DNA of 64,000 nucleotides, taken from contig JAFGCB010000016.1 in NCBI GenBank assembly GCA_016932855.1, positions 554-64,553 of the forward strand. Direction: 5' to 3'. The DNA comes from Candidatus Omnitrophota bacterium. Its GTDB lineage: Bacteria > Omnitrophota > Gorgyraeia > Duberdicusellales > Duberdicusellaceae. The translations under genes and the position numbers were made by a program. Shown one piece after another: positions 42,391 to 61,149 of the stretch; positions within the stretch are counted from its first letter, which is position 1; the number at the start of each line of letters is the position of its first letter. Under the pieces are notes generated by a model. The model had not been told where the DNA came from. It made no database searches and saw only the letters and a list, made by a program, of their open reading frames with translations.

Positions 42391-42410
42391 ATATCCTCCT
42401 TATATGTCTT

Positions 42411-42530: not shown

Positions 42531-42565
42531 AGGCCTGAAGTCTTTAGTCTTAAGTCTATGGTTTA

Positions 42566-44743: not shown

Positions 44744-44757
44744 TAAAAACCTCCGCT

Positions 44758-46053
44758 TTAAACCAATCTTCCTTCTATGGAAACACTCATACTGAAAGTT
44801 TTCTCTTTCTCGGGAATCAGGTCTTTTACCTGAGCGTACCCGAACCAATCTTCTAAGAGAAGATCTTTAATTTTTGATATGTCTATTTTTTCTTTTATTA
44901 AAGACAGATAGACCCCGGCATTAGTGAATCTTCCCACCCGGATAAAACCGACCAACTTCTTATCTTTTATGACCGCTCTTTTGTAAGTAGAATTTTCAGG
45001 GTCATTGACTGCTATTTCATCGAATCCAGCTTTACCTTCTTCGGGTATCCGGTGAATACCCAAAGAAACTACCGGCAGACCGAAAAACTCTACGGAATTT
45101 TCGGCCAGGGATCCATCATACGATGTCTTTTTCCCGGCCATGTTCAATCCGGCTATCCTGCCTTGCAGAGATGCGGCGCTCCATAAAGCGTTTATCGTAG
45201 TCTGACCTAAAGCCACGTCGTAGGTCTCGGCGCAATCACCGGCGGCAAAAATACCTTTAAGATTAGTCTCAAGATGCTCATTAGTCAATACTCCCCAATG
45301 TGTCTTTATCCCCGAATCTTTCAGCCAGTCCGTGTTCGCGGCCACGCCTTTTCCTACGACCACGATATCGCAGACGCGTTCCTGGCCATCGTCAAGCACC
45401 ACCGACTCCACCTTGTCTTTGCCGACTATCTCTTTCGCGGCCAGACCGGTATGTATCAATATCCCGTTCTTTTCCAAATGCCTCCTTAATATCAAAGCCG
45501 CTTTTTCATCTATTACCTGGCTCATAAGGGCTTTCGACTTTACTATCACCTCAACATCCAAGCCTTGCTTAGCAAGCCCGTAAGCAGCCTTAAGCCCCAC
45601 CAGACCTCCTCCTAAAACCAGCGCTCTCTTTGCGGTCTTAGAAAGTTTAAGCAAGGCCTCGGCGTCATCTAAGGTCCTGAACGTATATACCCCGGGTTTC
45701 TTTTCGCCGGGTAAACCTAAAGGCTTAGGATAACCGCCAGTGGCAAGCAATAATGTATCAAAGACGACCTCTTGCTTGTTTTCTAGAATGACTTTCTTTT
45801 TCTCAGGCAAAAGTCTAATAGCTTTTTTTCCCAATAAAGTATTTGCCTTCATCCTTTCGTAAAAATCGCCAGGGCGCAAAAATAAATCTTTCTTCTGCTT
45901 AAGCCCTGCTAGGTAGTACGAAATAAGGCAACGGCCGTAAACAGGATAGCTCTCATCGGAAATAACCGTTATCTGTCCTTTTTTATCTTGGGCTCTAATC
46001 GCTTCCAAAGCATTGAGGCCTGCCGCGCAATTACCGATTATTACGTAATTCAT
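44758..46053 (-). CDS. FAD-dependent pyridine-nucleotide-disulfide oxidoreductase (Nox/CoADR-like).
   Basis: N-terminal Rossmann motif VIIGNCAAG, redox Cys context YGRCLISYYL and a second NAD-binding GGGLVGLKAA. ATGA overlap with cooF. Confidence 0.7.
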   Translation of the reverse strand: MNYVIIGNCAAGLNALEAIRAQDKKGQITVISDESYPVYGRCLISYYLAGLKQKKDLFLRPGDFYERMKANTLLGKKAIRLLPEKKKVILENKQEVVFDTLLLATGGYPKPLGLPGEKKPGVYTFRTLDDAEALLKLSKTAKRALVLGGGLVGLKAAYGLAKQGLDVEVIVKSKALMSQVIDEKAALILRRHLEKNGILIHTGLAAKEIVGKDKVESVVLDDGQERVCDIVVVGKGVAANTDWLKDSGIKTHWGVLTNEHLETNLKGIFAAGDCAETYDVALGQTTINALWSAASLQGRIAGLNMAGKKTSYDGSLAENSVEFFGLPVVSLGIHRIPEEGKAGFDEIAVNDPENSTYKRAVIKDKKLVGFIRVGRFTNAGVYLSLIKEKIDISKIKDLLLEDWFGYAQVKDLIPEKEKTFSMSVSIEGRLV

Positions 46054-46565
46054 TTCTTTTCTTTGCTCCTCCCAATCCTCTCCTTAAACTCTTCCAATGT
46101 CCCAAGGAACAAACAACCCGTAGGACAAGCTTGAACACAGGCCGGCTCAGCGGTCTCGATACAAAAATCACATTTAAGACTTACCTTCTTATCTTTATCC
46201 ATGATAAGGGCGCCGAAAGGACAGGACATAATACACATACCGCAACCAACACATCTATCCTTGTCGATGGTCACCATACCGGTCCGCTCATCCCTGGTGA
46301 TTGCCGCGCTCATGCATGCCAATACGCAGGCCGGCTCGTCACAGTGCCGACATTGCAGAGGGTACGAACCCTCTTTGGTGACCTGCACGAAGACTCTCTT
46401 CTTGGGCCGGGGCTCCTCCCGGATTGCCAGGAATACATTTTTTTCCTGAGAATGGGCGACGGCACAGGCTATTTCGCAGGATTTGCACCCCACGCACCTG
46501 GCGATATCACAATAAATCCTTATCTGCGCATTGGTCTTTTTATTTTCCGCTTTTATCTTGGCCAT
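46050..46565 (-). CDS. cooF: CooF-like 4Fe-4S ferredoxin electron-transfer subunit.
   Basis: Four CxxCxxCxxxC(P)-type motifs (CVGCKSCEIAC, CRHCDEPACVLAC, CVGCGMCIMSCP, ...). Confidence 0.8.
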   Translation of the reverse strand: MAKIKAENKKTNAQIRIYCDIARCVGCKSCEIACAVAHSQEKNVFLAIREEPRPKKRVFVQVTKEGSYPLQCRHCDEPACVLACMSAAITRDERTGMVTIDKDRCVGCGMCIMSCPFGALIMDKDKKVSLKCDFCIETAEPACVQACPTGCLFLGTLEEFKERIGRSKEKK

Positions 46566-46594
46566 AAGGTCCTACTTTCGTGGAAGAATCGGTC

Positions 46595-48529
46595 TTAAGC
46601 CTTTGTCGCGGCCTCAGGGGCCCGAGCATACATAAGAGGCGCCAGCTTCAAAGCCTGCCTTTTCTTATCGATGTGAGCTATCATCATCCGGGCTGCTTTA
46701 ACAGGGTCTTGCTCAAAAGCAAACTTACCTCCCACGATATTCTCAAGTTCACCGGTTAGATAATCGGTCACCTTTTTACTTCCTAAGACCGGCAGGGGCG
46801 TACCAAACACAGTATACACACCGCTTCCTACAAAGTAGGAGCCGATGGAAACCGCTTTTTCACTCATCCATTCCGGAGCAGCGCCAGCCGCCGGAAGATC
46901 ACTGATATCTTCGCCTAAGCCGCCTTCGGCGACTACAGAAGCAAGAATAAGTAGTATCCTGGAATTATCGACACAGGAACCCACATGCAATACCGGCGGA
47001 ATCCCCACTGCTTCACATATTTCACGCAAACCTTCACCTGCGTATTCAAGAGCGCTCTCAGGGGTAAGAAGCCCTTCTTTAGCGCAAGCGATAGCTGAGC
47101 AGCCGGTCTGAACAACCAAAACATCGTTCTTTAAGAGCTCCTTAACCATAGCAACATGAGCCCAGTCATGTTTTATATTAGGATTATTGCAGCCTACTAC
47201 ACCGGCTGCTCCTCTTAACCTGCCTGAAATTATAGCGTCATTTAATGGACGTAGGGTAAAGCGGTATTTCCCGCCAAGGATTCGAAAAGCATTCTCTGTG
47301 GTAAATCCAGCGACTAAACCTTTGATCTCAGGAGGGATATCCACTCGCTCTTTGACTCTGTTTTTGTAATTCTCCACGCCGAGTCTTATAATCTGCTTGG
47401 CGATTTGAAAAGCTTTCTCTTCCTTAAATTCGATGTGTTCTACGCCAGGGAATTTGCATTTCGGCGAAGTAGTGACGAGTTTCGTATGGAAGCAATTAGC
47501 CACGCTGGAAAGCGCCGGCATAATACACTGGACATCGACCATCATAAGTTCTACCGAGCCTGTTAAAATAGCTAATTCTTGCTGCAGAAAATTACCCGCC
47601 GAAGGAAAACCATGCCGCATTAACAACTCATTAGCCGTACAACACATACCCACTAAATTTATCCCCTCTGCGCCGTATTTCTTCGCCAAGTCCAACAACT
47701 CTTTGTCTTTGGCAGCATCGGCAACCACATCGGAAAGCGTAGGTTCATGGCCATGAACAACAATATTAACCTGATTTTCTTTTAATACACCTAAATTAAC
47801 TGTCGCTCTAATCGGTTCAGGCGCGCCAAATAAAATGTCTGAAAGTTCGGTAGCAATCATTGAACCGCCCCAACCGTCGCCAAGCGCGGCTCTTAGCCCA
47901 TGATTAATTACGTTTTTATAATCGTTGTCAACTCCTATATGGGTCCTGTGCATTATCTCAACGATCTCTCTGTCGATACCCCGGGGCATCATACTGAACT
48001 TCCTCCAGATAGCCTGTCGTTTCGCGGGAGCAAGGCTTGTATACTTTAATTCCCCATGCTGCTGGCCGAACTCGGAAAGACACTTGTCTCCTAATTCCTG
48101 GCCTATACTCTGGGTATCTTTGCCCGCAATATCTATTCCGTAAACTTGCGCTGTCTTTTTAAGCTTCTGGGTGCCCTTTAAATGATAATCGTGGGCCTGG
48201 CCAGAAGCCGCCAGGATCAATGCATGGGCAATATCGCGGCCGTGATCTGAATGAGCCGCGGCCCCGGAAGCGATCATCCTCACGAAATTCCTCGCCACAA
48301 TAGTATCGACCGAAGCTCCGCAGATACCGGTCTGGGGACCCTCTCCAAAAGGATCTATTCTGCAAGGACCCATATTACAAATCTTACAGCATATCCCCAG
48401 CTCCCCGAAGCCACACTGCGGCTGCATTGCATCGTATCTATCCCATACGATATCTATATTTTCATCCTGAGCCTTATTTATCATCTTTTGACTTGCCGGA
48501 TCATAGGAACGTTCTTCTGCTTTAGCCAT
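46595..48529 (-). CDS. cooS: Anaerobic carbon-monoxide dehydrogenase catalytic subunit (Ni-CODH).
   Basis: N-terminal B/D-cluster Cys motifs (CGFGELGICCKICNMGPCRI) and C-cluster region patterns. Confidence 0.9.
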   Translation of the reverse strand: MAKAEERSYDPASQKMINKAQDENIDIVWDRYDAMQPQCGFGELGICCKICNMGPCRIDPFGEGPQTGICGASVDTIVARNFVRMIASGAAAHSDHGRDIAHALILAASGQAHDYHLKGTQKLKKTAQVYGIDIAGKDTQSIGQELGDKCLSEFGQQHGELKYTSLAPAKRQAIWRKFSMMPRGIDREIVEIMHRTHIGVDNDYKNVINHGLRAALGDGWGGSMIATELSDILFGAPEPIRATVNLGVLKENQVNIVVHGHEPTLSDVVADAAKDKELLDLAKKYGAEGINLVGMCCTANELLMRHGFPSAGNFLQQELAILTGSVELMMVDVQCIMPALSSVANCFHTKLVTTSPKCKFPGVEHIEFKEEKAFQIAKQIIRLGVENYKNRVKERVDIPPEIKGLVAGFTTENAFRILGGKYRFTLRPLNDAIISGRLRGAAGVVGCNNPNIKHDWAHVAMVKELLKNDVLVVQTGCSAIACAKEGLLTPESALEYAGEGLREICEAVGIPPVLHVGSCVDNSRILLILASVVAEGGLGEDISDLPAAGAAPEWMSEKAVSIGSYFVGSGVYTVFGTPLPVLGSKKVTDYLTGELENIVGGKFAFEQDPVKAARMMIAHIDKKRQALKLAPLMYARAPEAATKA

Positions 48530-48667: not shown

Positions 48668-49543
48668 TTAAAGACCTAGCTCATCTAAAAGCTGGGGAAC
48701 GTATTTATCCCAGCCTAAAGGCATTATATGAACGCCTTGACATAAAGGCTTTAACTGCTTTATAAGACGGGCGGCTATTTCAATAGATTTCTTTGGCCTG
48801 TCTTCTTTGGAAACCGAAGACATCTCGTCGATTAAGTCTTCGGGCACGTTTACTCCGGCAACGTTCTTATTCATAAACTTAGCCATGCCGGCTGATTTTA
48901 AAAGTACTATACCGGCAAGCACCGGAACTTTAAGGTGTTTTACCTTATCCATAAAATCGGCAAATCTATCCGCTTGGTATACAGCCTGAGTCTGAAAGAA
49001 GCGGGCGCCGGCTTGAACTTTTTTCTCCATCTTTATAATCTGAGGCTCAAGGGGCTCGGCTCCGGGAGTTACCACCGCACCTAAGAAAAAACTGGGACTT
49101 GACTCTAAGGGGTTTCCGACCATATCCTTGCCTTCGTTCAAACCCTTAGCTGCTTGAAGCAACTGCACCGAATCAAGATCATATACAGGCTTGGCCTGAG
49201 GATGATCTCCTAAAACAGGATGGTCTCCGGTAAGGCACAATACATTTTCAACCCCCAATGTATAAGCGCTTAAAAGATCCGACTGCAAAGCCAGTCTATT
49301 GCGGTCACGGGTAACCATCTGAAAAACCGGTTCCATGTCTTTTTCTTTAAGAAGAGCGCAAGCCGCCAAAGAACCGAATCTCATTACTGCCGATTGATTG
49401 TCAGTTACGTTAATCGCGGCGACTCTTCCTTTGAGATGCTCTGCTTCAGCTAAACACTCCTTAATATCTACTCCTTTAGGGGGACCGATTTCAGAAGTGA
49501 CGACAAACTCACCCTTATCTAATTTTTCCTTAAGAAGACTCAT
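48668..49543 (-). CDS. metF: Methylenetetrahydrofolate reductase (short MetF type).
   Basis: GEFVVTSEIGPPKG N-terminus and TIM-barrel MTHFR motifs. The ATG at 49541-49543 is preferred over the TTG at 49573. Confidence 0.8.
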   Translation of the reverse strand: MSLLKEKLDKGEFVVTSEIGPPKGVDIKECLAEAEHLKGRVAAINVTDNQSAVMRFGSLAACALLKEKDMEPVFQMVTRDRNRLALQSDLLSAYTLGVENVLCLTGDHPVLGDHPQAKPVYDLDSVQLLQAAKGLNEGKDMVGNPLESSPSFFLGAVVTPGAEPLEPQIIKMEKKVQAGARFFQTQAVYQADRFADFMDKVKHLKVPVLAGIVLLKSAGMAKFMNKNVAGVNVPEDLIDEMSSVSKEDRPKKSIEIAARLIKQLKPLCQGVHIMPLGWDKYVPQLLDELGL

Positions 49544-49833
49544 TCTTACACCTTTCTCTTCTAAAAAAATCAATAAATTTTCAGGATTTTTTGGATGGAT
49601 AGACTAGAATTATCCTATGCTAAATATTGAATTTTAACACTATAAGTATTATAAGTCAAGCGAAGACTGGACTTACGCAGATAAGCGAACTTAAGCTCGG
49701 TCTTCGCTTAACCCAACGCTTATTTCTACCGTATTTTCAGTTAAAATAAGTGCTGGTTCAAATTTGCAGGCATCCTTGAACCTAGGCTTTACTTTTACTT
49801 TGTTCCGCAAATCCTCCCCTCGCTGAAAAGACT

Positions 49834-49862
49834 TTGACAATTCGTTTTTATCCTATTAAAAT
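49834..49862 (+). promoter_or_regulatory. Sigma70-type promoter (TTGACA-17nt-TAAAAT) for the hydrogenase operon. The ATG is ~8 nt after the -10 box, which is consistent with a leaderless-type mRNA.
   Basis: Consensus hexamers read directly. No SD sits between the -10 box and the ATG. Confidence 0.4.
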
Positions 49863-49870
49863 AGGACACT

Positions 49871-50782
49871 ATGACCACCAAAGAAAACAACTCAAATCCC
49901 CCTACCGTTAAAGAAATTCCCGCAATTTGGCTGCCCGGTGCAGGCTGTACAGGATGTTCGGTATCGGTACTTAACGCGGTAAGCCCTAAGATTAAAAATT
50001 TGCTGCTTGATGAAATCGTACCCGGAACTAAGGTAAGTTTGCTTTTCCATGCCACTATTATGGCCGGCCAGGGAGAAATGGTAATTGAAGTATTAAAAGA
50101 TACCCAGAAAAGAAAGAAAGGTAAATACCTTTTAATCGTGGAAGGCTCTATACCTACGGCTGAAAAAGGAAAATACGGGACTCTGGGAAACCTTAAAGGT
50201 AAACACGAAACTATCTTGGGAAGCCTTAAGGAGCTGGGAAGCAATGCTCTGGCCGTAATTGCCCTGGGCGCCTGTTCCTCTTACGGAGGAATACCAGCAG
50301 CCCATCCAAACCCTACCGGATGTAAAGGCGTGAAAGAAGTCTTTAAAGAAAATAGTATAGAAACGCCGGTTATTAATGTTCCCGGATGTCCGCCTCATCC
50401 TGACTGGCTCTTAGGCACTATCTCGAGTCTACTTTTAGGAAGAATGCCGGAACTTGATGACGTTGGACGGCCCAAACTTTTTTACGGTACGCTCATACAT
50501 GAAAACTGTCCCCGCAGGGCTGATTTTGATAAAGGAAAATTTGCCAAATACCCCGGCGATGAAGGCTGTCTCTACCAGGTAGGCTGCAAAGGCCATTACA
50601 CCTACGCTGACTGTGCCTTAAGGCAGTGGAATAACGGGGTTAACTGGTGCATAAAAGCAGGCTCGCCCTGCTTAGGATGCGTTGAGCCGGAATTTCCCGA
50701 TTTAACCTCGCCCTTTTATGAAAAAATTACCACGGAGGACATAAAGTCGTGCATCACTACAAATACACAATCGACCCGATAA
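49871..50782 (+). CDS. [NiFe]-hydrogenase small subunit, with no Tat signal and no C-terminal membrane anchor (cytoplasmic, uptake-type architecture).
   Basis: WLPGAGCTGCSVSVLN, GACSSYGGIPAA, PGCPPHPDW and distal Cys motifs. The N-terminus lacks RRxFxK. Confidence 0.85.
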   Translation: MTTKENNSNPPTVKEIPAIWLPGAGCTGCSVSVLNAVSPKIKNLLLDEIVPGTKVSLLFHATIMAGQGEMVIEVLKDTQKRKKGKYLLIVEGSIPTAEKGKYGTLGNLKGKHETILGSLKELGSNALAVIALGACSSYGGIPAAHPNPTGCKGVKEVFKENSIETPVINVPGCPPHPDWLLGTISSLLLGRMPELDDVGRPKLFYGTLIHENCPRRADFDKGKFAKYPGDEGCLYQVGCKGHYTYADCALRQWNNGVNWCIKAGSPCLGCVEPEFPDLTSPFYEKITTEDIKSCITTNTQSTR

Positions 50783-52236
50783 CCCGGATAGAAGGCCACT
50801 TAGGAATCGAAGTAACCGTAGATAAAAATGTTATAAAGGAAGCTAAAAGCTCGGGAACTTTATTCCGGGGCTTTGAATTGATCCTAAAAAAAAGAGACCC
50901 CAGAGACGCAAACCGTTTAAGTCAAAGGGTCTGCGGGGTCTGCCCGGCGGTCCATGCCAAAGCCTCGGCCCTTTGTCTTGACGACGCTTTTGGCCTAAGC
51001 GGAAAAATAACTCAAAACGCAAAAATCATCCGCAACCTCATCCTCGGCTCAAACTTTCTGCAATCCCATATCCTGCATTTCTACCACTTAGCTGCCCTTG
51101 ACTACGTAGACGCAAAAAAAGCCGTGGGAGATATCGCTCCTTTTACTCCCCGCTACGAAGGAGATTACCGCCTGGATAATAAGATAAACCAACAAGCAAC
51201 AGCCCACTATATGCAAGCCTTGGACATACGGCGCAAAAGCCATGAGATGCTGGCAATTTTTGGAGGAAAGATGCCTCACAATGTAGGTATTATTCCCGGC
51301 GGAGTCACTGAAAAACCGACTGAAGATAAAATTACTAATTTCTTATGGCGCTTAAATGAAATCCGTGAGTTCATTGACAATTGCTATATACCCGATGTAA
51401 TCGCTGTTGCCAAAACCTACGGCGATTACCTAAAAATCGGCAAAGGCTGCGGAAACCTTCTTGATTACGGGGGATTTGAAATTAACGCAAATACATTTTT
51501 TAAACCAGGGGTGGTATCTGCGGGCTTGGAACTCTCAGAGTTGAATGCGGAGAAAATAACCGAAGACGTAAAATATTCCTGGTTCTCCGACCAGACAACC
51601 GGACTTCATCCTTCCCGATCAGAAACTGTACCCCAGACCGAGAAAAAAGATGCTTACTCATTCATTAAATCTCCCCGCTATGACGGCAAAGTAGTTGAAA
51701 CAGGACCTCTTGCCCGCATGGTAATTGGATACCTGCAGGATAAACCTCAAATTAAAAACCAAATTGACAGTCTTCTTTCTGAGCTTGATATCGCGGCTCA
51801 AGACTTATTTTCTGTAATGGGCCGCCATGCAGCCCGGGCAATAGAAGCTAAATTAGTTGCTGATACCATGGCCGAATGGATAGTTAAGTTAAATCCCGAC
51901 GAAAAAGTTTTTAGCGGATACCAGCTGCCGGAAACAGCCCAGGGAACAGGTCTTACAGCAGCCCCCCGGGGAAGCTTAGGCCACTGGATATCGATAAAAG
52001 ATTCTAAAATAGAAAGATACCAGATAATAAGCCCTACTTCCTGGAACGCCTCGCCCAAAGACGATAAAGGAAATCCCGGCCCTATTGAGCAGGCCCTTAT
52101 CGGGACAGAGATTAGAGATAAAGAAAATCCTTTCGAGGTAGTAAGGATAATTCGCACTTTTGACCCTTGCCTTGCCTGTTCCATGCAGTTGATTACTCCC
52201 AAGGGTAAAAAAATCGGAGAGTTCGAAGTTGTATAA
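50749..52236 (+). CDS. [NiFe]-hydrogenase large subunit.
   Basis: RIEGH, the RVCGVCPAVH L1 motif and C-terminal DPCLAC followed by a 17-aa extension. GTG start with GGAGGA upstream. Confidence 0.9.
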   Translation: MHHYKYTIDPITRIEGHLGIEVTVDKNVIKEAKSSGTLFRGFELILKKRDPRDANRLSQRVCGVCPAVHAKASALCLDDAFGLSGKITQNAKIIRNLILGSNFLQSHILHFYHLAALDYVDAKKAVGDIAPFTPRYEGDYRLDNKINQQATAHYMQALDIRRKSHEMLAIFGGKMPHNVGIIPGGVTEKPTEDKITNFLWRLNEIREFIDNCYIPDVIAVAKTYGDYLKIGKGCGNLLDYGGFEINANTFFKPGVVSAGLELSELNAEKITEDVKYSWFSDQTTGLHPSRSETVPQTEKKDAYSFIKSPRYDGKVVETGPLARMVIGYLQDKPQIKNQIDSLLSELDIAAQDLFSVMGRHAARAIEAKLVADTMAEWIVKLNPDEKVFSGYQLPETAQGTGLTAAPRGSLGHWISIKDSKIERYQIISPTSWNASPKDDKGNPGPIEQALIGTEIRDKENPFEVVRIIRTFDPCLACSMQLITPKGKKIGEFEVV

Positions 52237-52687
52237 AAAAGTTGTAATCTTAGGTCTGGGCAATATCCTCTTAAAAGATGAAGGGATCGGCGTCCATATT
52301 TCCGAGGAACTTACGAAATTGCGTCTTGGCGACAATATCGAGATTATTGACGGCGGAACCGCAAGCCTGGACGCGCTTATCCAAACAGCAAATTTCGACA
52401 AACTAGTTATTGTTGATGCTCTAAGGGCCGGTAAAAAACCGGGGACTATATATCGTTTCAACAGCCACCAGCTGCATGCGCACCTTGATTCAAGGAAACT
52501 GTCCTTGCATCAATTTAGCCTATTGGAAGCTTTATCAATAACTGAAAAAACAGGAAATTTACCCAAAGAAGTTATCTTTATAGGAGTTGAGCCTGAAAAA
52601 ATAGACTGGGGCCTGGAAGTAAGTAAGTCTGTAAAGGAAAAAATACCGGAAATTATAAAGTTAGTGACCCAGGAACTACCCAATTAG
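52229..52687 (+). CDS. Hydrogenase maturation endopeptidase (HyaD/HybD family).
   Basis: VVILGLGNILLKDEGIGVH...IIDGGT...LVIVDA pattern. TTG start overlapping the large-subunit stop. Confidence 0.75.
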   Translation: MYKKVVILGLGNILLKDEGIGVHISEELTKLRLGDNIEIIDGGTASLDALIQTANFDKLVIVDALRAGKKPGTIYRFNSHQLHAHLDSRKLSLHQFSLLEALSITEKTGNLPKEVIFIGVEPEKIDWGLEVSKSVKEKIPEIIKLVTQELPN

Positions 52688-52719
52688 TTTTTTTAGAAAC
52701 TAATTGAATGACAAATTAC

Positions 52720-52800
52720 AAATCCCAAATCCCAATAGATTTTGGATTTGGGATTTTGGATTTACTTGGGATTTGGTAGTATTGGAACTTGGGATTTGAT
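52720..52800. repeat. Family B repeat copy B3 (caaatcccaaatcccaat...ttggatttgggattttggattt palindrome plus the TACTTGGGATTTGGTAGTATTGG motif).
   Basis: Shares TACTTGGGATTTGGTA(A/G)TATTGG with B1 (20306-20330). Confidence 0.6.
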
Positions 52801-52862
52801 TTATCTGCCTGCTCGCCTCTTGGCGAAACCGAGGGCCGACAAGTAGGGTAAACGACGAAGAA

Positions 52863-53528
52863 ATGCTTTACACAGAAAAAAAACCAATAGCTGAAATACT
52901 AGAGCTGCTAAAGGGAAGTAGGAATATCTTTTTAGTGGCCTGCAACGGCTGTCCTGAAGCCTGTGAAACCGGCGGAAAAGCAGCTTTAGAAGAAATAGAA
53001 AAAGAACTTAAGACGAACGCAAAGACCGTTAGCGGAAGCGTTCTAATTGATTTTCTCTGCAATAAAATGCTGGTTACTACCCGGCTTTTCAGATGCAGCC
53101 AGCAAATAAACCAGGCTGATTGTATTCTGGTGCTTTCCTGCGGTATAGGCGTTCAAGCTGTATCAAGCATTCTGGATAAACCCGCCTTGCCTGCACTAGA
53201 TACAATCTCTATGGGCGGCTTTCAAGGATTATGGCCCTCAAGCGAACGCTGCGAAGAATGCGGCCAATGCTACTTGGGACTAACAGGAGGAATCTGTCCG
53301 ATTACTTTTTGCAGTAAAAGTCTCTTGAGCGGGCCTTGCGGCGGCACTAAAGACGGTAAATGCGAAGTCGATTCCGACCGCGACTGCGGCTGGCATCTTA
53401 TCTATGAAAGGCTGAAGAAAATAGGAAAACTGGATGTTTTAAAAAAACCGGCTAAACCCCGAAATTACCAAAGAATGCTTACCTCCAAAGAACTGCGGAA
53501 AAAAACCTTCTACGACATAGAAGAATAA
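52863..53528 (+). CDS. Cys-rich Fe-S/zinc protein, MetV-like (resembles the MTHFR C-terminal-domain small subunit of acetogen MetFV reductases). Paralog 1.
   Basis: CNGCPEAC N-terminal motif. C-terminal CEECGQC...GGICP..FCSKSLLSGPCGG..DGKCEVD.DRDCGW.LIYERL block, shared with 54178-54894. Confidence 0.45.
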   Translation: MLYTEKKPIAEILELLKGSRNIFLVACNGCPEACETGGKAALEEIEKELKTNAKTVSGSVLIDFLCNKMLVTTRLFRCSQQINQADCILVLSCGIGVQAVSSILDKPALPALDTISMGGFQGLWPSSERCEECGQCYLGLTGGICPITFCSKSLLSGPCGGTKDGKCEVDSDRDCGWHLIYERLKKIGKLDVLKKPAKPRNYQRMLTSKELRKKTFYDIEE

Positions 53529-53576
53529 AGCCTCGTTTTAATAAAACCATAAAACGATAAGCAAAAGCTTCTGACC

Positions 53577-54194
53577 TTACCCTAACAGTGAGCTTATTAC
53601 CACAAAGCCGCCTTTACCAAAACCCTGACAGGGTTTTTCAACCGACTTCATTTTACCGGGTAATTCAAACAAGGTTTGATAATAAGAAAATGTATTGAAT
53701 CCGGCTACTTTGAGCAAATCCTTTAATTCCTCGACTCCGAAAAATCGAGCCTGTTTATAGAATAGGCTTTTCTTTTTCCGATAAAATCTACCCAAGAAGC
53801 TGTCTTTATCTATTATGCCCAGGATTACCCTTCCGTCTTTTTTTAAGACCCGACCGGCCTCCTGTAATACCTTCAAGGGATTATCGACAAAACATAGAGT
53901 TATGATAATCGCCGCATAATCAAAGGTATTATCAAAAAAAGGCAAGCCTTCGCCAAAACCAAGACATACATTTACGCCCCGTCGCCTGGCTATCTTAAGC
54001 ATATTCAAAGAAGGGTCTACCCCAATGGCAATCTCTAAAGAAGCGGCAAATCTGCCTGTTCCTACCCCGATCTCTAAACCCCTTCCTGGAGGTATTGCTT
54101 TCCTCAAAGCCTCAATTTCCGAGAAATAGGCAAACTTGTTATTATCGTACCAGTAATCATATTTCTTGTAATATTTATTAAACAGAGCTTTCAC
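53577..54194 (-). CDS. Class I SAM-dependent methyltransferase (type 11-like).
   Basis: Motif I LEIGVGTGRFA and post-I acidic residue. GTG start. Confidence 0.7.
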   Translation of the reverse strand: MKALFNKYYKKYDYWYDNNKFAYFSEIEALRKAIPPGRGLEIGVGTGRFAASLEIAIGVDPSLNMLKIARRRGVNVCLGFGEGLPFFDNTFDYAAIIITLCFVDNPLKVLQEAGRVLKKDGRVILGIIDKDSFLGRFYRKKKSLFYKQARFFGVEELKDLLKVAGFNTFSYYQTLFELPGKMKSVEKPCQGFGKGGFVVISSLLG

Positions 54195-54894
54195 AACGGT
54201 AAATTCCTGCTAAAGATTTAAATTCAGCCTCGTTTGCCTCAAGCTTTAAGTTACGGGGCCTGCTCCACTTAGAATAGTCTTTCGGCTCTCGGAATTTATA
54301 CATTAAATCCAGTTTATTAATATTCTTTAACCTTTCATATATTAATTGCCAGCCGCAATCCTGGTCTCTATCCACTTCGCACTTACCATCCTTTGCACCG
54401 CCGCAGGGGCCGTTTAAAAGGCTTTTCGTACAAAGGGTTAGAGGGCATAATCCGCCGGTATATTCTACAATACATTCACCGCATAAAGAGCAATACTCCG
54501 TAATATAGTCATCATTGACTGTCTCGCCGCCGAAAATCGTGTCGCACCCGGGATAAACATTACCTGCGTCTGTTGCATCCATAACAGTATGTATGCCCTG
54601 TCCGCAGGCTAAAACTAAGAAAGAATCGGCTGCCCGGGTCTCTTGCTCATGTTCTTTATTAAGCAGCTTCTTGGCTACCGACAGCTTACAGAGAGAAGAA
54701 CCGCTGGCCGTAGCTGCGTAACCGGTAACCCTTACACCTTTGTTTTCCAAGCGGGACTTCATTGCCTTGGCTTGCTCCTCTCCGCCGGAACGGCACTTCT
54801 CGGCACAATTACCACAACCAACAACAAATATTTTTTCTCCCTTTTTCAAAAACCCAACTATTTTGTCCAATGGCTTCTGTATTGTAGCATGCAT
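54178..54894 (-). CDS. Cys-rich Fe-S/zinc protein, MetV-like paralog 2.
   Basis: CGNCAEKC...CSLCGEC...GGLCPLTLCTKSLLNGPCGGAKDGKCEVDRDQDCGWQLIYERL. It is collinear with paralog 1. Confidence 0.45.
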   Translation of the reverse strand: MHATIQKPLDKIVGFLKKGEKIFVVGCGNCAEKCRSGGEEQAKAMKSRLENKGVRVTGYAATASGSSLCKLSVAKKLLNKEHEQETRAADSFLVLACGQGIHTVMDATDAGNVYPGCDTIFGGETVNDDYITEYCSLCGECIVEYTGGLCPLTLCTKSLLNGPCGGAKDGKCEVDRDQDCGWQLIYERLKNINKLDLMYKFREPKDYSKWSRPRNLKLEANEAEFKSLAGIYRCESSV

Positions 54895-55212
54895 AAATCT
54901 TCTCCTTTTTTTTATCTACACCTTAACCATAATAATAATTTAAAAGTCCAAATCTGACCACCGACCATCGTAGAATATTTTCAGATATTTATAAAATTCT
55001 CTATCCATAGCATCCCTTTTTACGTCCTTTTCTTTAAAAGAATGTCTCTAGCCGGGGCAGTAACTCATTAAGATATCATTGACATGGCTTATCCTTTTAA
55101 ATATTTCTTCGCATTCTTTCTTCTTTTCATCTCTGCATTTATTCAAATGGTATTCATGCGTTAGTCGGCGGCAAGCTTTCTTCTTTTACTCTTTATTGCC
55201 GCTATTTTTAAT

Positions 55213-55413
55213 TTATCCTAAAGGGCAGGTTCCTGTCGGGCAATTGTTTGAGCTAAATGAGCTGGATTTACCCATACTAAATGCTGCATAAGTCTTCTCG
55301 ATATTTTTGCTCTTACACTTTTTGCATTTAAGCTCCGTTTTTTCAGCCGTAACCCCAATTAACAAATCAAATTTTTCACCACAATTTTTACAAATATAAG
55401 TATACAAAGGCAT
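55213..55413 (-). CDS. FmdB-family zinc-ribbon protein.
   Basis: MPLYTYICKNCGEKFD...LKCKKCKS: CxxC...CxxC at an N-terminal YxYxC. Confidence 0.55.
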   Translation of the reverse strand: MPLYTYICKNCGEKFDLLIGVTAEKTELKCKKCKSKNIEKTYAAFSMGKSSSFSSNNCPTGTCPLG

Positions 55414-55430
55414 ATCGCAACTCCCGATTA

Positions 55431-56060
55431 TTATGAACTAACCGTTTCCAATAATAAATTTTTGAATCTATCTAATGAGATTCCGCACGGCTCGATAGGA
55501 AGCCTCATCCAATCAGCAAATTCCAACACCTGTTGAGGGTGCTCCTGGCAGTACCTGTCAAAAATCCCTAGGGGATCTAAAAGAATCGCTTTATCGTGCT
55601 GGGGAAAGGTTTCATTGGCCTTGCCCTTATCCCAGTCTTTAAAGATTATCTTCCAATGTTCCATCCAGCCCCATGAGAGCCAATATACTTTCTGTCCGCC
55701 GCTTATATTTTCTCTCTCATCGGGGCTAACAAACATGTCAATACAGTTTTTTGCTTTTATTCTTACAGCGGAATTTACACTTTCCTGAATTATTCTTTCT
55801 ATGTCCCGGGCAGGATCTTTAATATCAATATAGCATCTGTTTCCGTAAATAACTATAATATTTTCCGAATATTTTTTTGCATTATTAATTTGTTTTTTAA
55901 GCTGTCCCTTGAGTTCACTGGGCACCTCATGCAAACCAGGCGCAGTATATAAAATCTTATCGGCGTTTAAAAATGCTGTCTGATTTAAAAATGCAAGCTC
56001 CCTGCGTAATGTACCGCAGGAAACAATGCTATACCCTTTAAAACCTGTTTTTCTATCCAT
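55431..56060 (-). CDS. Hypothetical protein, possibly DUF1638-like.
   Basis: Size and weak pattern only. There is no diagnostic motif. Confidence 0.3.
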   Translation of the reverse strand: MDRKTGFKGYSIVSCGTLRRELAFLNQTAFLNADKILYTAPGLHEVPSELKGQLKKQINNAKKYSENIIVIYGNRCYIDIKDPARDIERIIQESVNSAVRIKAKNCIDMFVSPDERENISGGQKVYWLSWGWMEHWKIIFKDWDKGKANETFPQHDKAILLDPLGIFDRYCQEHPQQVLEFADWMRLPIEPCGISLDRFKNLLLETVSS

Positions 56061-57336
56061 CTGCTGACTGCGATTTTTCTAAAGGGTGTGTCGGGGCTGT
56101 AATCTTTTCAATCTGTTTGCTAAGATATTTGTCGATAACGTCACTTACTATGGAATTTTCTTCTGCCCTATATATATCAACAAAATTCTCCTTTAGCATG
56201 TAAAAGGATATTTCCCCGATACGGGAAGTAAACAATACGTCTAACTTGTATTTGATGACGGCTTTTATGACTTTTATTCCTATATGTTTTGTTTCATGCA
56301 AGAATTCGTTATAATAAAAATCTTCGATTTCCGGAGTGCCGTCAGTAAGTTTAAGAATAATATAATACGGTGCCCGGCCAAAATGGCCGTGGACTTTCGA
56401 GCCTAAGCCATTCATATCCTTAACCGGAATAATCGCCGAAACAACCTGCTTTCTTGAAGGTTCAACATGCATAAATACGGATTCGACATTTTTATAATTT
56501 TTTATTATAAAGTTTTCTGTTTTATGTGCAAGTTCGTGCGCCCGGTACAAAGCAAGCGTAGGTGAAGTCTGAATTTTACACTCCACCATTTTAAAAGGGC
56601 CCGATTGGCGAATTTTAACCTCGCTTTTTCCCTTAACGCCGTATAGTTCGTTTATCTTTTCTTCAATTTCATATTGTAATTCAGGGTCTAAATTAGCGTC
56701 CATTAAGGCAAGTAATGCTGTCCATGCATTTTTGACGCCCAGCTTTACAACAAGAAATGAAATCAAAATTATAATAATTCCTTCTACGTAGGGAATCCTA
56801 AAAAATGCAAGCAAAATTCCTATCAAAACAACGACCGAAGTAAAAATATCAAGAAATGACTCTTGAGCGTTTGCAAGAAGCGATTGAGAGCCTATGGCCT
56901 CACCGATTTCTTGTTCTTTTCTGGCAATAAAGAATGCAGCCATAATAGACGCTAGACTTGCTGAAACCGGTGCAAAAGGAAATTCCTGAACCTCTTTTAG
57001 GAAAAAGAGCTTTTCATACCCACCTTTTAAAATCTCCCAACCAGCCCATAATATTACTATTCCGACTATAAGAGTAACTAAAGTCTCTGCTTTAAACAAG
57101 CCATAAGGGAACCGAGCGCTTTTCTTCTTGGAAGCCAACCAAAGGCCAAAGCCCGAAGCAAAAATAGCCAGAATATCGGCACCACTATGGAAAGCATCGG
57201 CTATAAGGATTTGGGAACCGAAAAGATGCCCTATGGCACCTTTGGCTACTGCTAAAAGGAAAGTTACCCCTGCCGCGATAAAGGCTGTTTTCTGTCCTCG
57301 TCTTAATCCTCTGGTAGTTTCTCTATCAACTTCCAT
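56053..57336 (-). CDS. Cation diffusion facilitator (CDF) transporter fused to a C-terminal NifX/NifB-like (dinitrogenase FeMo-cofactor-binding fold) domain.
   Basis: CDF TM region with HSGADILAIF-type motifs. C-terminus AIIPVKDMNGLGSKVHGHFGRAPYYIILK matches the Nitro_FeMo-Co family pattern. The ATG at 57334-57336 is preferred over the TTG at 57357. Confidence 0.65.
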   Translation of the reverse strand: MEVDRETTRGLRRGQKTAFIAAGVTFLLAVAKGAIGHLFGSQILIADAFHSGADILAIFASGFGLWLASKKKSARFPYGLFKAETLVTLIVGIVILWAGWEILKGGYEKLFFLKEVQEFPFAPVSASLASIMAAFFIARKEQEIGEAIGSQSLLANAQESFLDIFTSVVVLIGILLAFFRIPYVEGIIIILISFLVVKLGVKNAWTALLALMDANLDPELQYEIEEKINELYGVKGKSEVKIRQSGPFKMVECKIQTSPTLALYRAHELAHKTENFIIKNYKNVESVFMHVEPSRKQVVSAIIPVKDMNGLGSKVHGHFGRAPYYIILKLTDGTPEIEDFYYNEFLHETKHIGIKVIKAVIKYKLDVLFTSRIGEISFYMLKENFVDIYRAEENSIVSDVIDKYLSKQIEKITAPTHPLEKSQSADG

Positions 57337-57357
57337 GCCAACCTTAAATTCATCCAA

Positions 57358-57591
57358 TTATTCTGAAAAAAACTGGCGCGTCATCGGCACGCCGCATTTT
57401 GGACATCTGGTCTGAAAACAAGGAAGGCCCAATTTGTGAAACACGGTTATTCCGCAATTAGGGCAGATACAATTCTCCGGCTGTCTTCTTCGTCCCAAAG
57501 GTCCAAACCATCCCCTGCGTCCTCTTCTTCCCGGAAAACCTCTTCCTTGGCCTCCGCCTCTTCCTTGGCCTCTTCCGAATCCAAATGGCAT
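57358..57591 (-). CDS. Small Gly/Arg-rich protein with a C-terminal zinc ribbon (CxxC...CxxC).
   Basis: MPFGFGRGQGRGGGQGRGFPGRRGRRG... then CICPNCG...RCPKCG. Confidence 0.4.
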   Translation of the reverse strand: MPFGFGRGQGRGGGQGRGFPGRRGRRGWFGPLGRRRQPENCICPNCGITVFHKLGLPCFQTRCPKCGVPMTRQFFSE

Positions 57592-57628
57592 AACAATCTC
57601 CTTCTCTAAGAATAATTTTTATTGTCTA

Positions 57629-58342
57629 TTAAACCTCAATAATCTCACCGACATTTACGCTGATAAAATCTTTCCTATATTTATTCTTAAATATTTCTTG
57701 AGCTTCATATCCGCTACAATGGGTTGGAGCTGTTTTTTCCACGCCAAGTCTTATGAATTCATCAACAATAAGTTCAACTTCTCTTTTATCTTTATCCACA
57801 AGGTGAAATCCCCCCAGAACCGTATAAATACTTTCTTTTGGAAAATTCCCTTTTACTGTCTTTAATATTTTGACAATGCCCGGATGGGCACAACCGGTAA
57901 TAATAGAAACTCCTTTATCAGTTTTAACTACCAACGCCTCCTCAGGCATATATTCGCCTTTATATTTACCTTCTATTTCACCGCTGACAAAAATATCTTT
58001 TGCAATTTCAGTAACTTTTTTTGCTTCTATAAGCTTGCCTTTTAATCTTTTAACTTTTTCCTTAAATTCCAAACTGAAATTAGGACATCCATAAACCAAA
58101 AGACCCTCTTTCTTTCTTAATAATTCCCATAGACCTCCGGTATGATCCCAGTGATCATGAGAAATAACCACAGCCTCTATACTAGCGCTATCAGCATTTA
58201 AAATCCTCATATTCTCCAAAAGCCAAAAGCCGTTTTCTCCTGTATCAAACAATATCTTTCCATCAACCAAGAACGAAACTCCCCAACCTACATGCAGCTT
58301 CTTGTTTTTATTATCCTTGTCAAAAAGAATCTTCACCTTCAT
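57629..58342 (-). CDS. MBL-fold metallo-hydrolase.
   Basis: VISHDHWDHTGG (HxHxDH) and downstream His/Asp ligands. Confidence 0.7.
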   Translation of the reverse strand: MKVKILFDKDNKNKKLHVGWGVSFLVDGKILFDTGENGFWLLENMRILNADSASIEAVVISHDHWDHTGGLWELLRKKEGLLVYGCPNFSLEFKEKVKRLKGKLIEAKKVTEIAKDIFVSGEIEGKYKGEYMPEEALVVKTDKGVSIITGCAHPGIVKILKTVKGNFPKESIYTVLGGFHLVDKDKREVELIVDEFIRLGVEKTAPTHCSGYEAQEIFKNKYRKDFISVNVGEIIEV

Positions 58343-58354
58343 CTTAGAACCTCT

Positions 58355-58771
58355 CTATATTCTTCCATCCCTATTTTTAAGCAAAGTGGCTATTGTAGTT
58401 TCAGCAAGGACCCTATGTAGTCTTTTTTTAATATCTTTCATATGGGCCATTAGCACGCAGTCATCAGGATAGGGACAAATATCTTTTTCCAGCAAACAAT
58501 CCATAATATCTATTCTACCCCTAAATATCTTTATTATATCTATAAGACGCAACTTAGAAGCGGGCGTATTCAAAACAAAACCCCCGCCTTTACCTTTTAA
58601 AGATTTCAATATCTTTTTTTTGCTTAAAATCTGTAAAATTCTTCTCAAAAAAGCCCTACGCATTTTCAATTTATTGACCACCTCGCTCACAGAAGTATTC
58701 TTATACGGCCTTTGCGCAATATACAACAGAGACCTTATTGCGTAATAGATATTTTTATTTATTAACCTCAC
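58355..58771 (-). CDS. Rrf2-family transcriptional regulator with three C-terminal Cys (probable Fe-S sensing, IscR/NsrR-like).
   Basis: Rrf2 wHTH N-terminus (YAIRSLLYIA...VSEV) and C-x6-C-x5-C (CLLEKDICPYPDDC). GTG start. Confidence 0.7.
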   Translation of the reverse strand: MRLINKNIYYAIRSLLYIAQRPYKNTSVSEVVNKLKMRRAFLRRILQILSKKKILKSLKGKGGGFVLNTPASKLRLIDIIKIFRGRIDIMDCLLEKDICPYPDDCVLMAHMKDIKKRLHRVLAETTIATLLKNRDGRI

Positions 58772-59264
58772 TATATCTCTGTATTTTTTCTATTATTTTT
58801 CTGTGAGATGAAAATGGTATAACAGGCAACTCTTTCTTGTTGAAAAATTTAGCATCTCTCAATTCACTGTTTAATGATAGGTAATCTTTGGAAATTTTAA
58901 CCATATATCCAATAACGAGAACTGAACCATATTCTCTTGTTTTTTGAATATAAACACCGATTAATCTTTCAATCTTGCCTCTTAGGCCTGTTTCCTCTTT
59001 TAGCTCTCTTAAACAAGCGCTCTCAGGCGCCTCACCGAATTCAACAAACCCACCGGGTAAAGACCACTTATTTATACCCGGTTTGAGATTTCTCTTTACT
59101 ATAAGAACTTCTCCTTGTTTATTCTCTACCAAAGATACCGCCACTGGCAAAGGATTTTTATAATATACCCAACCACACTTTTGACAAATCAACCTTTTTC
59201 GACCATCTATCGTTTTTTTGAGTAAATAATGCCTGCATAAAGGACAAAATTTAAATGTGCGCAC
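58755..59264 (-). CDS. NUDIX hydrolase with an N-terminal four-Cys zinc ribbon (NudC-like arrangement).
   Basis: Nudix box GGFVEFGEAPESACLRELKEETGL. CPLC...CQKCG N-terminus. GTG start. Confidence 0.7.
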   Translation of the reverse strand: MRTFKFCPLCRHYLLKKTIDGRKRLICQKCGWVYYKNPLPVAVSLVENKQGEVLIVKRNLKPGINKWSLPGGFVEFGEAPESACLRELKEETGLRGKIERLIGVYIQKTREYGSVLVIGYMVKISKDYLSLNSELRDAKFFNKKELPVIPFSSHRKIIEKIQRYSEVNK

Positions 59265-59289
59265 TGTTATTTCTTCCTTACCCCTATTT

Positions 59290-59835
59290 CTACAATCCCA
59301 ACTTACCGCTTATTTCTCGCATCGCATCCAAGCATATAGCAACAAAATCTTCGGGCGATAGACCGAATTCCTGACAAGCTTCTATCTGCTGCCGATTTAC
59401 TCCCCGGGCAAAACTTTTCTCTTTAAAGCGATTTAAGACAAATTCTGTATTTAAAGCTTCTAGTTTTTTCTGCGGGTGCATTAAACAAGCAGCAACAATC
59501 AAGCCTGTTAAAGGGTCAACGCTGTATAACGCCTTCGCCATTAAGGTCTTTCTTTCAATGTGTCCGGGATGGCCTTTTATTGCTTCTAGGATTTGACTAT
59601 CTATATCTTCTTTCTCCAAAATTTCGGCGGTAACGAACCCGTGTCTTGGAAAATCATCTTTGGTATCCTCATAATCCATATCGTGGAGAAGGCCGGCTAA
59701 CCCCCAAAATTCTATATCTTCTCCAAATTCCTTAGCCAGTCGCTTCATACAGGCCTCAACCGCTAAACTGTGCTTTACCAGATTTTTATTCTTAAGTTTC
59801 GATTTGAGACGTTCTATAGCTTCGGATCTGTTCAT
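59290..59835 (-). CDS. HD-domain phosphohydrolase.
   Basis: H...HD motif (HSLAVEA...LLHDMDY). Confidence 0.65.
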   Translation of the reverse strand: MNRSEAIERLKSKLKNKNLVKHSLAVEACMKRLAKEFGEDIEFWGLAGLLHDMDYEDTKDDFPRHGFVTAEILEKEDIDSQILEAIKGHPGHIERKTLMAKALYSVDPLTGLIVAACLMHPQKKLEALNTEFVLNRFKEKSFARGVNRQQIEACQEFGLSPEDFVAICLDAMREISGKLGL

Positions 59836-59934
59836 GTTTGAATTGTCCTTATTTGAACTAATCTTTAAGACATTTTCTGCCCAAGGATGTAAACAGCCTG
59901 AAATTTAAACTAGGCCTTTATTTAATTTACATCC

Positions 59935-60279
59935 CTAAGCCTTAAATACTTCGTCCAATATATCGGTTATCTGTTTTCTATTCTGAATACTGCTTGTTGC
60001 CTTAACGACTTTCCCATTTTTGAAATAAACAGTAAAAGGTAAACCCATAAAGAAAGAGCATTCCGGCAAGTCCCTGATAAAAGAAGCGGCCGGAATATCA
60101 AAATCCATGTCTCTAAACTGAATATGCGGATATTCCACCTCCAATTTCTGCATGATACCAAAAACGGGAATGCACATCTGTCCCATTCTCCCGCAACAAA
60201 TCATGACATTCTCATTGGTTTTAAGTAACTCCTCAATTTGCTCACGACTCTCTATGTGCTTAAGATTCGTATTTAACAT
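59935..60279 (-). CDS. Thioredoxin-fold protein with an atypical active-site region.
   Basis: Trx-like secondary-structure pattern. CCGRMGQMC replaces the canonical WCGPC. Confidence 0.4.
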   Translation of the reverse strand: MLNTNLKHIESREQIEELLKTNENVMICCGRMGQMCIPVFGIMQKLEVEYPHIQFRDMDFDIPAASFIRDLPECSFFMGLPFTVYFKNGKVVKATSSIQNRKQITDILDEVFKA

Positions 60280-60504
60280 TGCCGCACCCCCTATTGTTTT
60301 TTAAGCTGTTTGAAAAACTCGCGAGGATTTTCATGCAGGCCAAGTATTGTATATAGAATTTTTATCGAAAAAGTCCTTTTCCTCGATTTCTACCTCTTTC
60401 CCTATATCAACCAAAACCGCCTGCCCTTCTAAAAATACCTCTGTCTATAAAAGATAAGACTGAACTTTCGGAAAAACGTATATCACTCTTTGATGGACTA
60501 AAAC

Positions 60505-60576
60505 TAATTATCCCCGAAGATTAAAATCTATACAAGCTCCACAACCTTTACATCTATCACCATCAATCCAAGGCAT
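60505..60576 (-). pseudogene. Possible remnant of a 4Fe-4S ferredoxin gene: a 23-codon ORF (MPWIDGDRCKGCGACIDFNLRG*) directly abutting the upstream stop. The remaining ~200 nt of the gap shows protein-like frames interrupted by stops.
   Basis: The CxxCxxC start of a ferredoxin motif is truncated by a stop. The gap at 60280-60576 is ~300 nt with no intact ORF. Confidence 0.2.
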
Positions 60577-61140: not shown

Positions 61141-61149
61141 CTCAACAAA

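Follow-up and report, generated by a model that had tools for sequence, protein, structure and literature searches.

We describe here a hydrogenase gene cluster that lies beside the CO dehydrogenase/acetyl-CoA synthase (CODH/ACS) genes of a Candidatus Omnitrophota bacterium and that may form, together with the nearby metF, a module for the H2-dependent reduction of methylenetetrahydrofolate (methylene-THF). The DNA analyzed, called the window throughout, is a stretch of 64,000 nucleotides (contig JAFGCB010000016.1, positions 554 to 64,553 of the forward strand). On its minus strand, the cooS/acs operon opens with metF, and the CODH/ACS genes lie 3' of it. Divergent from metF, the plus strand carries hydS and hydL, which encode the two hydrogenase subunits, followed by the gene of a maturation protease and by metV1. 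Convergent with this hydrogenase operon are the gene of a UbiE-like methyltransferase and metV2, which overlap each other. All seven open reading frames (ORFs) called in the first-pass annotation of this DNA were recovered from the ORF list and by Pfam (Table 1).

Table 1. Features of the hydrogenase locus and its surroundings, with positions in the window
Feature	Position	Strand	Evidence or description
hydS, [NiFe]-hydrogenase small subunit	49871-50782	+	PF01058 and PF14720
hydL, [NiFe]-hydrogenase large subunit	50749-52236	+	PF00374, E 2e-148
HyaD/HybD/HycI-type maturation endopeptidase	52229-52687	+	PF01750, E 4e-29; TIGR00072, 142 bits, above cutoff
metV1, hydrogenase-operon MetV, Fe-S/Zn protein	52863-53528	+	PF12225, E 4e-33
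metF, MetF-type methylene-THF reductase catalytic subunit	48668-49573	-	PF02219, E 6e-39, full-length
metF/hydS divergent intergenic region	49574-49870	.	Promoter-like hexamers on both strands
Protease-metV1 spacer, 175 nt	52688-52862	+	TGGGATTT-type direct and inverted repeats, hairpins
metV2	54178-54894	-	PF12225, E 2e-32
UbiE-like S-adenosylmethionine (SAM) methyltransferase	53577-54194	-	Methyltransf_11
CODH/ACS operon (cooS, cooF, FAD/NAD oxidoreductase, acsB, acsC, RACo, acsD, acsE)	37145-48529	-	Pfam: PF03063, PF13247, PF07992, PF03598/PF19436, PF03599, PF14574, PF00809

By similarity, the hydrogenase falls into the [NiFeSe]/group 1a lineage, yet it departs from that group in the twin-arginine translocation (Tat) signal and periplasmic location by which the group is recognized. 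The top PDB matches of HydS and HydL were all [NiFeSe] hydrogenases, the best being the small subunit of Desulfomicrobium baculatum for HydS (E 1e-88) and HysA of Desulfovibrio vulgaris for HydL (E 3e-139, aligned through the C-terminal extension). A group 2 identity was rejected on score (group 2a Huc, E 1e-61), as was a group 3c identity (Mvh chains at E 1e-25 to 1e-29, compared with 1e-139 for group 1a, and no MvhD); the HydL matches to Mvh, Frh, and NAD-linked enzymes together ranged from 1e-23 to 1e-29. Among the NCBIfam models, HydL passed the cutoff of NF033181 (674 vs 600), with NF045518 (HysA) next best and under its cutoff, and the best model for HydS was NF045520 (NiFeSe small subunit), also under its cutoff. 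HydL is 100% identical to the NCBI protein MBN2119791.1, from a Candidatus Omnitrophica metagenome-assembled genome (MAG).

The ligands of the metal sites are in place. The four nickel ligands of HydL (C62/C65 in the N-terminal RxCGxC motif and C474/C477 in the C-terminal DPCxxC motif) are invariant in the alignment, and the active-site residue is cysteine, not selenocysteine (DPCLAC, with a Cys codon). In HydS, all 12 cluster ligands are kept, namely those of the proximal (C26/C29/C135/C173), medial (C248/C260/C267/C270, a four-Cys site as in the [NiFeSe] enzymes), and distal iron-sulfur (Fe-S) clusters (H210/C213/C233/C239, the His being surface-exposed). HydS begins 25 residues before its CxGC motif (CTGC), with a stop codon just upstream and no RRxF motif, which leaves too little sequence to hold a Tat signal, and since its 20-aa C-terminal tail is polar, it has no membrane anchor either. 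The same absence of export signal and anchor had been read from the DNA in the first-pass annotation. Neither HydL nor MetV1 carries an N-terminal extension, and we infer that the hydrogenase stays in the cytoplasm.

An alignment scan with HydL, covering one genome per species, gave 80 related loci (53-69% identity). The ORFs of each locus were searched with the proteins of the window, and the counts that follow are limited to loci with enough flanking sequence. A PF12225 (metV) gene lies within 2.5 kb of the hydrogenase in 70 of the 71 assessable loci whose HydS is Tat-less; the only one without it (L032) is ended by a contig edge. In 61 of the 71, this gene encodes a MetV1 orthologue (44-63% identity) on the same strand directly 3' of hydL or the protease gene, and in nine it is directly 5' of hydS; the MetV1 orthologues are the MetV type found inside hydrogenase operons. 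metF was near the hydrogenase in every assessable locus (63/63), 51 of which have the colinear order hydS-hydL-(protease)-metV-metF. The linkage of metF, hydrogenase, and metV expected of related genomes is therefore conserved, and it extends over more than ten phyla: the hosts are Omnitrophota, Planctomycetota (Phycisphaerae, Sedimentisphaerales), Elusimicrobiota, Chloroflexota (Anaerolineae, Dehalococcoidia), Bipolaricaulia, Fraserbacteria, Poribacteria, Aerophobetes, Spirochaetota, and Desulfobacteraceae. The commonest further neighbors are fhs, folD, an acsE-like gene for a pterin-binding protein, cooC, and genes for FdhA-like and NuoF-like proteins; cooS and acs genes also occur.

The four relatives with a Tat-bearing HydS (L053, L058, L074, and L076, with motifs such as TRRDFLK and SRREFLK) have neither metV nor metF (0/4 for each), and three of them (L058, L074, and L076) have a CooF/HybA-like gene in their place. 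The association between absence of the Tat signal and presence of metV and metF has a Fisher p of 4e-6, uncorrected for shared ancestry. In a neighbor-joining tree of HydS, built without support values, 70 Tat-less sequences form one clade, which has a Tat-bearing group as its sister. A separate observation concerns two non-ligand positions of HydS, 103 and 151, which are mostly Gly and Cys in the Tat-less, MetV-linked sequences and mostly Cys and Ala in the Tat-bearing relatives; this cysteine swap parallels the change of compartment or partner.

The C-terminus of HydL had been described as ending in DPCLACSMQ, without the usual His or Arg at the position of protease cleavage, followed by 17 residues. 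The first part of this description stands, and the length of the extension has to be corrected to 15 aa (LITPKGKKIGEFEVV). D. vulgaris HysA, aligned to this extension, has His where the HydL of the window has Gln. Among the 120 closest HydL homologues, the residue before the extension is His in 116 and Gln in four (the window protein, P0002, P0016, and P0035), all of which are related Omnitrophota large subunits that keep the 15-aa tail (in the window, the HydL C-terminus is at 52204-52236). For the HydL of the surveyed genome loci, His was found in 79, and L078 is without such a motif. The protease gene is 3' of hydL in most related loci, and it is kept in the operon on both contigs that encode P0016. 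Because the P0016 operon keeps this gene together with the 15-aa tail, the Gln substitution is probably tolerated, a minor variant with no sign of decay.

Both Cys-rich proteins had been proposed to resemble MetV, and their PF12225 matches bear this out. MetV1 and MetV2 are 39-41% identical and share the 13 conserved cysteines of the family, eight of which are invariant in the C-terminal domain of MetV1. Against solved structures, MetV gave no sequence match, and the only likeness of fold was to a generic alpha/beta domain. In an AlphaFold2 model of MetV1, made with database homologues (predicted local distance difference test 82.5, predicted template modeling score 0.80), the alpha/beta N-domain is confident, whereas the C-domain, rich in Cys, is poorly defined.

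With regard to metF, the start annotated in the ORF list is likely to be too far upstream, the true one being the ATG at 49543; the product would then have 291 aa, the length of MetF in relatives. It is 63-80% identical to the MetF proteins encoded in or beside the hydSL-metV operons elsewhere. Thus, a MetF (PF02219, about 290 aa) and a Cys-rich MetV (PF12225, about 24 kDa), the two proteins that characterize reductases of the MetVF class, are both encoded here. The adjacency and co-transcription of metV and metF, also characteristic of the class, are not seen in the window, where the two genes diverge; adjacency is present in 51 of the 63 related loci. Of the nearest Omnitrophota relatives, L081 to L085, two (L081 and L082) have the layout of the window without change, cooF-cooS-metF diverging from hydS-hydL-hycI-metV, followed in L081 by folD-fchA-fhs. 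In these two and in the window, MetV1 is the only MetV at the locus that holds metF.

The first-pass annotation had described the hydrogenase as inserted between metF and metV. The commoner order elsewhere, hydS-hydL-protease-metV-metF, argues otherwise: it is the position of metF that varies. The invariant core is hydS-hydL-(protease)-metV, and the place of metF in the window is a lineage-specific displacement from an ancestral hydSL-metVF operon.

Not both of the Cys-rich proteins can be counted as partners of the hydrogenase, as had been supposed. That part of the claim holds for MetV1, which is encoded in the operon; it fails for MetV2, which belongs to a separate conserved block. Relatives of MetV2 occur in two settings. 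In the first, metV2 is paired with metF, often beside hydSL or divergent from it (L005, L097, L099, L122, L124-L126, and L129-L131). In the second, it adjoins the gene of a UbiE-like methyltransferase, with no metF (L086, L088, L090, and L098), either inside a block with DUF89 and DUF1638 genes (L086, L090, and L098) or beside DUF89 and DUF1638 genes (L088). Other members of the block, which is found in Omnitrophota and Elusimicrobiota, encode a cation-efflux/NifB-like protein, Rrf2, a metallo-beta-lactamase, a Zn-ribbon protein, and a deformylase. A MetV2 without metF is also present in Latescibacterota (L087), where the methyltransferase is of another type and is encoded one gene away from metV2. 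The MetV2 of the window is in the second setting, and the stretch from 53577 to 63978 is syntenic with L086. In one Elusimicrobiota MAG, hydSL-protease-metV1-metF and metV2 with the methyltransferase gene are at separate loci (L031 and L088, respectively). Because the MetV2 block is separate, as this split also illustrates, MetV2 was rejected as a further partner of the window hydrogenase and only MetV1 was counted in the module; metV2 and the methyltransferase gene probably lie outside it. The metF-less block suggests, from its gene content, that the MetV family has a role outside methylene-THF reduction.

A different combination is seen in four loci of the Planctomycetota type (L017, L124, L125, and L131), which have the order metF-metV2-hydS-hydL-(protease)-metV1-metF, with two metF and two metV genes. 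Such double loci hint that one hydrogenase serves a pair of MetVF modules, or that the assembly is heteromeric.

Turning to noncoding DNA, promoter-like hexamers that match the consensus were found in the metF/hydS intergenic region on the plus strand (TTGACA-17-TAAAAT, 49834-49862) and on the minus strand (TTGACT-17-TAAAAT, 49659-49631); these are consensus matches only, and the count of such sites in this region is no higher than expected from shuffled sequence. A THF or other riboswitch in the region was rejected, because the whole window gave no match to any Rfam family. Long hairpins are predicted for the protease-metV1 spacer (-47.7 kcal/mol, z = -2.6), which may act as a terminator or attenuator or be a repeat element that was inserted there. 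In most relatives, the protease and metV genes abut or overlap; in L081, they are 135 nt apart.

Within the CODH/ACS operon, cooS, cooF, and the gene of an FAD/NAD(P) oxidoreductase (PF07992 with a rubredoxin-reductase C-terminal domain) lie between metF and acsB (44758-48529). A CODH-CooF-flavoprotein unit is thus placed inside the acs operon; the unit also occurs in L005 and L031. Two unusual ORFs just 3' of the acs genes encode an orotidine monophosphate (OMP)-decarboxylase/HUMPS-like domain in fusion with an RraA-like aldolase domain (35093-36406) and an AAA_26 and DRTGG protein (33940-35040).

Taken together, these observations make it fairly probable that the locus encodes a soluble cytoplasmic [NiFe]-hydrogenase of [NiFeSe]/group 1a descent that has lost its export signal and feeds electrons from H2 via MetV1 to MetF. 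Under this interpretation, H2 would be split at the Ni-Fe site of HydL, and the electrons would travel by way of the three HydS clusters (proximal, medial, and distal) to the Fe-S clusters of MetV1 and from there to the flavin of MetF, with MetV1 as the bridge between HydS and MetF. MetF would then reduce methylene-THF to methyl-THF, and the methyl group could be handed on through AcsE, the corrinoid protein, and ACS, all of which are encoded next door. The central idea of the first-pass annotation, a hydrogenase-coupled and H2-dependent methylene-THF reduction module, is in this respect strongly supported by synteny. That the proteins form a physical complex, that electrons flow toward MetF, and that neither bifurcation nor energy coupling takes place is what we infer for the window enzyme. 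In terms of known enzymes, its gene content is best filed as that of a MetVF reductase with hydrogenase input from a group 1a-like enzyme.

Four classes of methylene-THF reductase have been distinguished in acetogens (MetF alone, MetVF, RnfC2-MetVF, and HdrABC-MvhD-MetVF), none of which has hydrogenase input (PMC9430772, PMC8760232), and the physiological electron donor of the MetVF (type II) enzymes is stated to be an open question (PMC8760232). The evidence leans, by a modest measure, toward regarding HydSL-MetV-MetF as a fifth class, H2-dependent and soluble, that arose from an ex-periplasmic, Tat-less group 1 hydrogenase and is widespread among uncultured anaerobes from at least ten phyla. 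In its Hdr-flanked variants, the module might in addition pass electrons to ferredoxin by bifurcation. The same MetF (PF02219) and Cys-rich MetV (PF12225) core is present in the type II and type III enzymes, and what differs is the proposed input module, a two-subunit [NiFe]-hydrogenase in the window in contrast to ferredoxin (type II) or the NADH-binding RnfC2 (type III). None of the hdrA, hdrB, hdrC, and mvhD genes that mark type IV was found in the window, by Pfam for 2269-57357 and by similarity to a related locus for the last 6 kb.

Part of this arrangement is already in the literature, so the suggestion in the first-pass annotation that the module had not been described in this form holds only in part. 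In MAGs of Bipolaricaulia from Great Salt Lake sediment, a group 1a HysAB hydrogenase (HydDB) was stated to adjoin MetVF and possibly to supply it with electrons (PMC11287216, 2024); this independent study thus shares the inference of electron supply. In the literature covered, which was mostly outside subscription journals, we found no systematic survey, no remark on the missing Tat signal, and no biochemistry or structure of a hydrogenase-MetVF complex.

The closest relatives of the window hydrogenase, with alignments near full length, are the HysAB enzymes of group 1a (D. vulgaris and Desulfomicrobium baculatum; PDB 5JSU, 4KL8, and 1CC1), which share its four-Cys medial cluster, His-ligated distal cluster, 15-aa C-terminal extension, and cognate protease. 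It differs from them in the absence of a Tat signal, in having Cys for selenocysteine and Gln for His at the cleavage position, and in its genetic partner, which is MetV/MetF in the window and cytochrome c3 or a membrane complex in HysAB. Like MvhADG-HdrABC (group 3c), it would be a cytoplasmic [NiFe]-hydrogenase tied through an Fe-S adaptor to a reductase; unlike that system, it has no MvhD, and its sequence is distant from Mvh. The same concept is realized in the hydrogen-dependent CO2 reductase (HDCR), in which a soluble hydrogenase and small Fe-S subunits deliver electrons to a Wood-Ljungdahl reductase and soluble carriers are bypassed. HDCR, however, combines an [FeFe]-hydrogenase with a formate dehydrogenase, and none of its subunits is known to be homologous to those of the window module. 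The chain of Sporomusa ovata (HdrCBA-MvhD-MetVF) also has H2 as donor, methylene-THF as acceptor, and MetVF as terminal reductase; membranes of this organism were shown to transfer electrons from H2 to methylene-THF, with a periplasmic hydrogenase and with cytochrome b and quinone as proposed carriers (PMC9430772). That chain spans the membrane and conserves energy, whereas the window hydrogenase has neither export signal nor anchor, and no gene for cytochrome b, Hdr, or MvhD turned up in the window.

Several points weigh against direct transfer from this hydrogenase to MetF. The metF of the window is divergent, 3.3 kb away from metV1 and outside the hydrogenase operon, and the structured 175-nt spacer parts the protease gene from metV1. 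Gln stands in place of the usual His at the processing site of HydL. The HydS tree is indicative only, being without support values and leaving a small spirochaete group outside its resolution. The coupling of HydSL to MetV and MetF is argued from gene content, ligands, absence of the Tat signal, and synteny, all of which are features of sequence. Under standard conditions, the uncoupled direct reaction would also waste about 41 kJ/mol, an unusual loss for acetogens that are limited in energy. Finally, hdr genes flank the module in Anaerolineae loci and partly in L051, and they could lie elsewhere in the present genome.

This last point leads to the alternative that survives best, although we still hold it to be unlikely: a larger flavin-based bifurcating complex, like MvhADG-HdrABC, in which H2 oxidation is coupled to both the exergonic reduction of methylene-THF and the endergonic one of ferredoxin and the HdrA-like and HdrBC-like subunits are encoded elsewhere. 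The hdr genes beside the module in the Anaerolineae loci and, in part, in L051 make such a complex possible. In eight Anaerolineae loci (L027, L029, L030, L033-L036, and L038), the hydrogenase module is beside a 1489-aa HdrA/GltD-like fusion, accompanied in six by an HdrBC fusion; the order is hdrA-metV-hydS-hydL-HK-metF-RR-RR-metV-metF-hdrBC-folD and then the protease gene, where HK is a histidine kinase that binds cyclic nucleotide monophosphates (cNMP) and RR a response regulator. L051 has an hdrA-like gene as well. Type IV reductases pair MetVF with HdrABC-MvhD, and their Hdr genes are not always co-localized (PMC9430772, PMC6085437); bifurcation would, moreover, recoup the roughly 41 kJ/mol otherwise lost. 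Set against this, an hdr-like gene is missing within 10 kb in most Tat-less loci, and no PF02662 (MvhD-type) protein accompanies the hydrogenase module. As the first-pass annotation had noted for hdrABC, mvhD, and rnfC2, none was found in the 64-kb window: Pfam detected no Hdr, MvhD, or RnfC domain in the ORFs of 2269-57357, and the ORFs of 57629-63978 had no counterpart of these proteins, as judged solely by similarity to an annotated related locus. The Hdr-MvhD-MetVF enzyme of S. ovata, too, did not bifurcate with H2 in vitro (PMC9430772). In the Anaerolineae variant, the Hdr-MetVF cluster of marine Chloroflexi, which was described without a hydrogenase (PMC5736913), is combined with the Tat-less hydrogenase.

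It is less probable again that HydSL-MetV1 is a general cytoplasmic uptake hydrogenase, with MetV1 as a ferredoxin-like exit subunit serving several acceptors and the proximity of metF a matter of co-regulation among one-carbon genes. The operons of L083-L085, in which hydS-hydL-hycI-metV lies beside folD-fchA-fhs with no metF adjoining, would fit such an enzyme, as would the label 'ferredoxin' that the Joint Genome Institute (JGI) gives to many members of the MetV family and the MetV2 paralogues beside a methyltransferase gene without metF. Against it stand the constant presence of metF in the assessable loci, colinear after metV in most of them, and the fact that PF12225 proteins are biochemically known solely as partners of MetF (PMC9430772).

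The module could also run in reverse, oxidizing methyl-THF and releasing H2 in a reversed Wood-Ljungdahl oxidation of acetate or methyl groups, but we regard this as very improbable. The enzymes of the pathway are reversible, several of the host lineages are suspected syntrophs, and MetVF oxidizes methyl-THF with artificial acceptors (PMC9430772). However, with E0' values of -200 mV for methylene-THF/methyl-THF (PMC9430772) and -414 mV for H+/H2 (PMC8760232), electron transfer from methyl-THF to H2 is endergonic by about 41 kJ/mol, syntrophic acetate oxidizers are thought to need reverse electron transport at this step (PMC10689502), and a soluble complex has no energy input. By calculation, the reduction of methylene-THF with H2 yields about -41 kJ/mol under standard conditions and about -18 kJ/mol at 10 Pa H2. 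Because H2 would have to fall below roughly 1e-7 bar for the reverse reaction to be feasible, the uptake direction is favored.

Least credible of all is an H2-sensing regulatory hydrogenase like HupUV of group 2b that would control the Wood-Ljungdahl genes: the enzyme is Tat-less and cytoplasmic as HupUV is, and the Chloroflexota-type clusters do contain the cNMP-binding kinase and two response regulators, but its sequence groups with the [NiFeSe]/group 1a enzymes by PDB and NCBIfam similarity, it retains both the C-terminal extension and a dedicated protease, neither of which sensory group 2b hydrogenases are known to have, and no kinase is near the hydrogenase in most loci or in the window, where the Pfam-scanned ORFs include no histidine kinase at all.

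A soluble hydrogenase that delivers electrons from H2 through MetV1 to MetF thus remains the reading we favor, and it bears on a step of wide importance. For growth on H2 + CO2, the methylene-THF reductase reaction determines whether the ATP balance is positive (PMC8760232), which is why the identity of the electron donor of MetVF matters. If the proposal is true, it would give a concrete answer on this donor for abundant uncultured organisms with the Wood-Ljungdahl pathway, among them Omnitrophota, Phycisphaerae, Dehalococcoidia, Anaerolineae, Bipolaricaulia, and others, and the most exergonic step of the pathway would be driven directly by H2. It would also change how metagenomes are read, where matches to 'group 1a' are routinely taken to mean respiratory uptake of H2 in the periplasm: the Tat-less, MetV-linked ones would instead be cytoplasmic and dedicated to carbon fixation, a periplasmic hydrogenase lineage re-used inside the cell.

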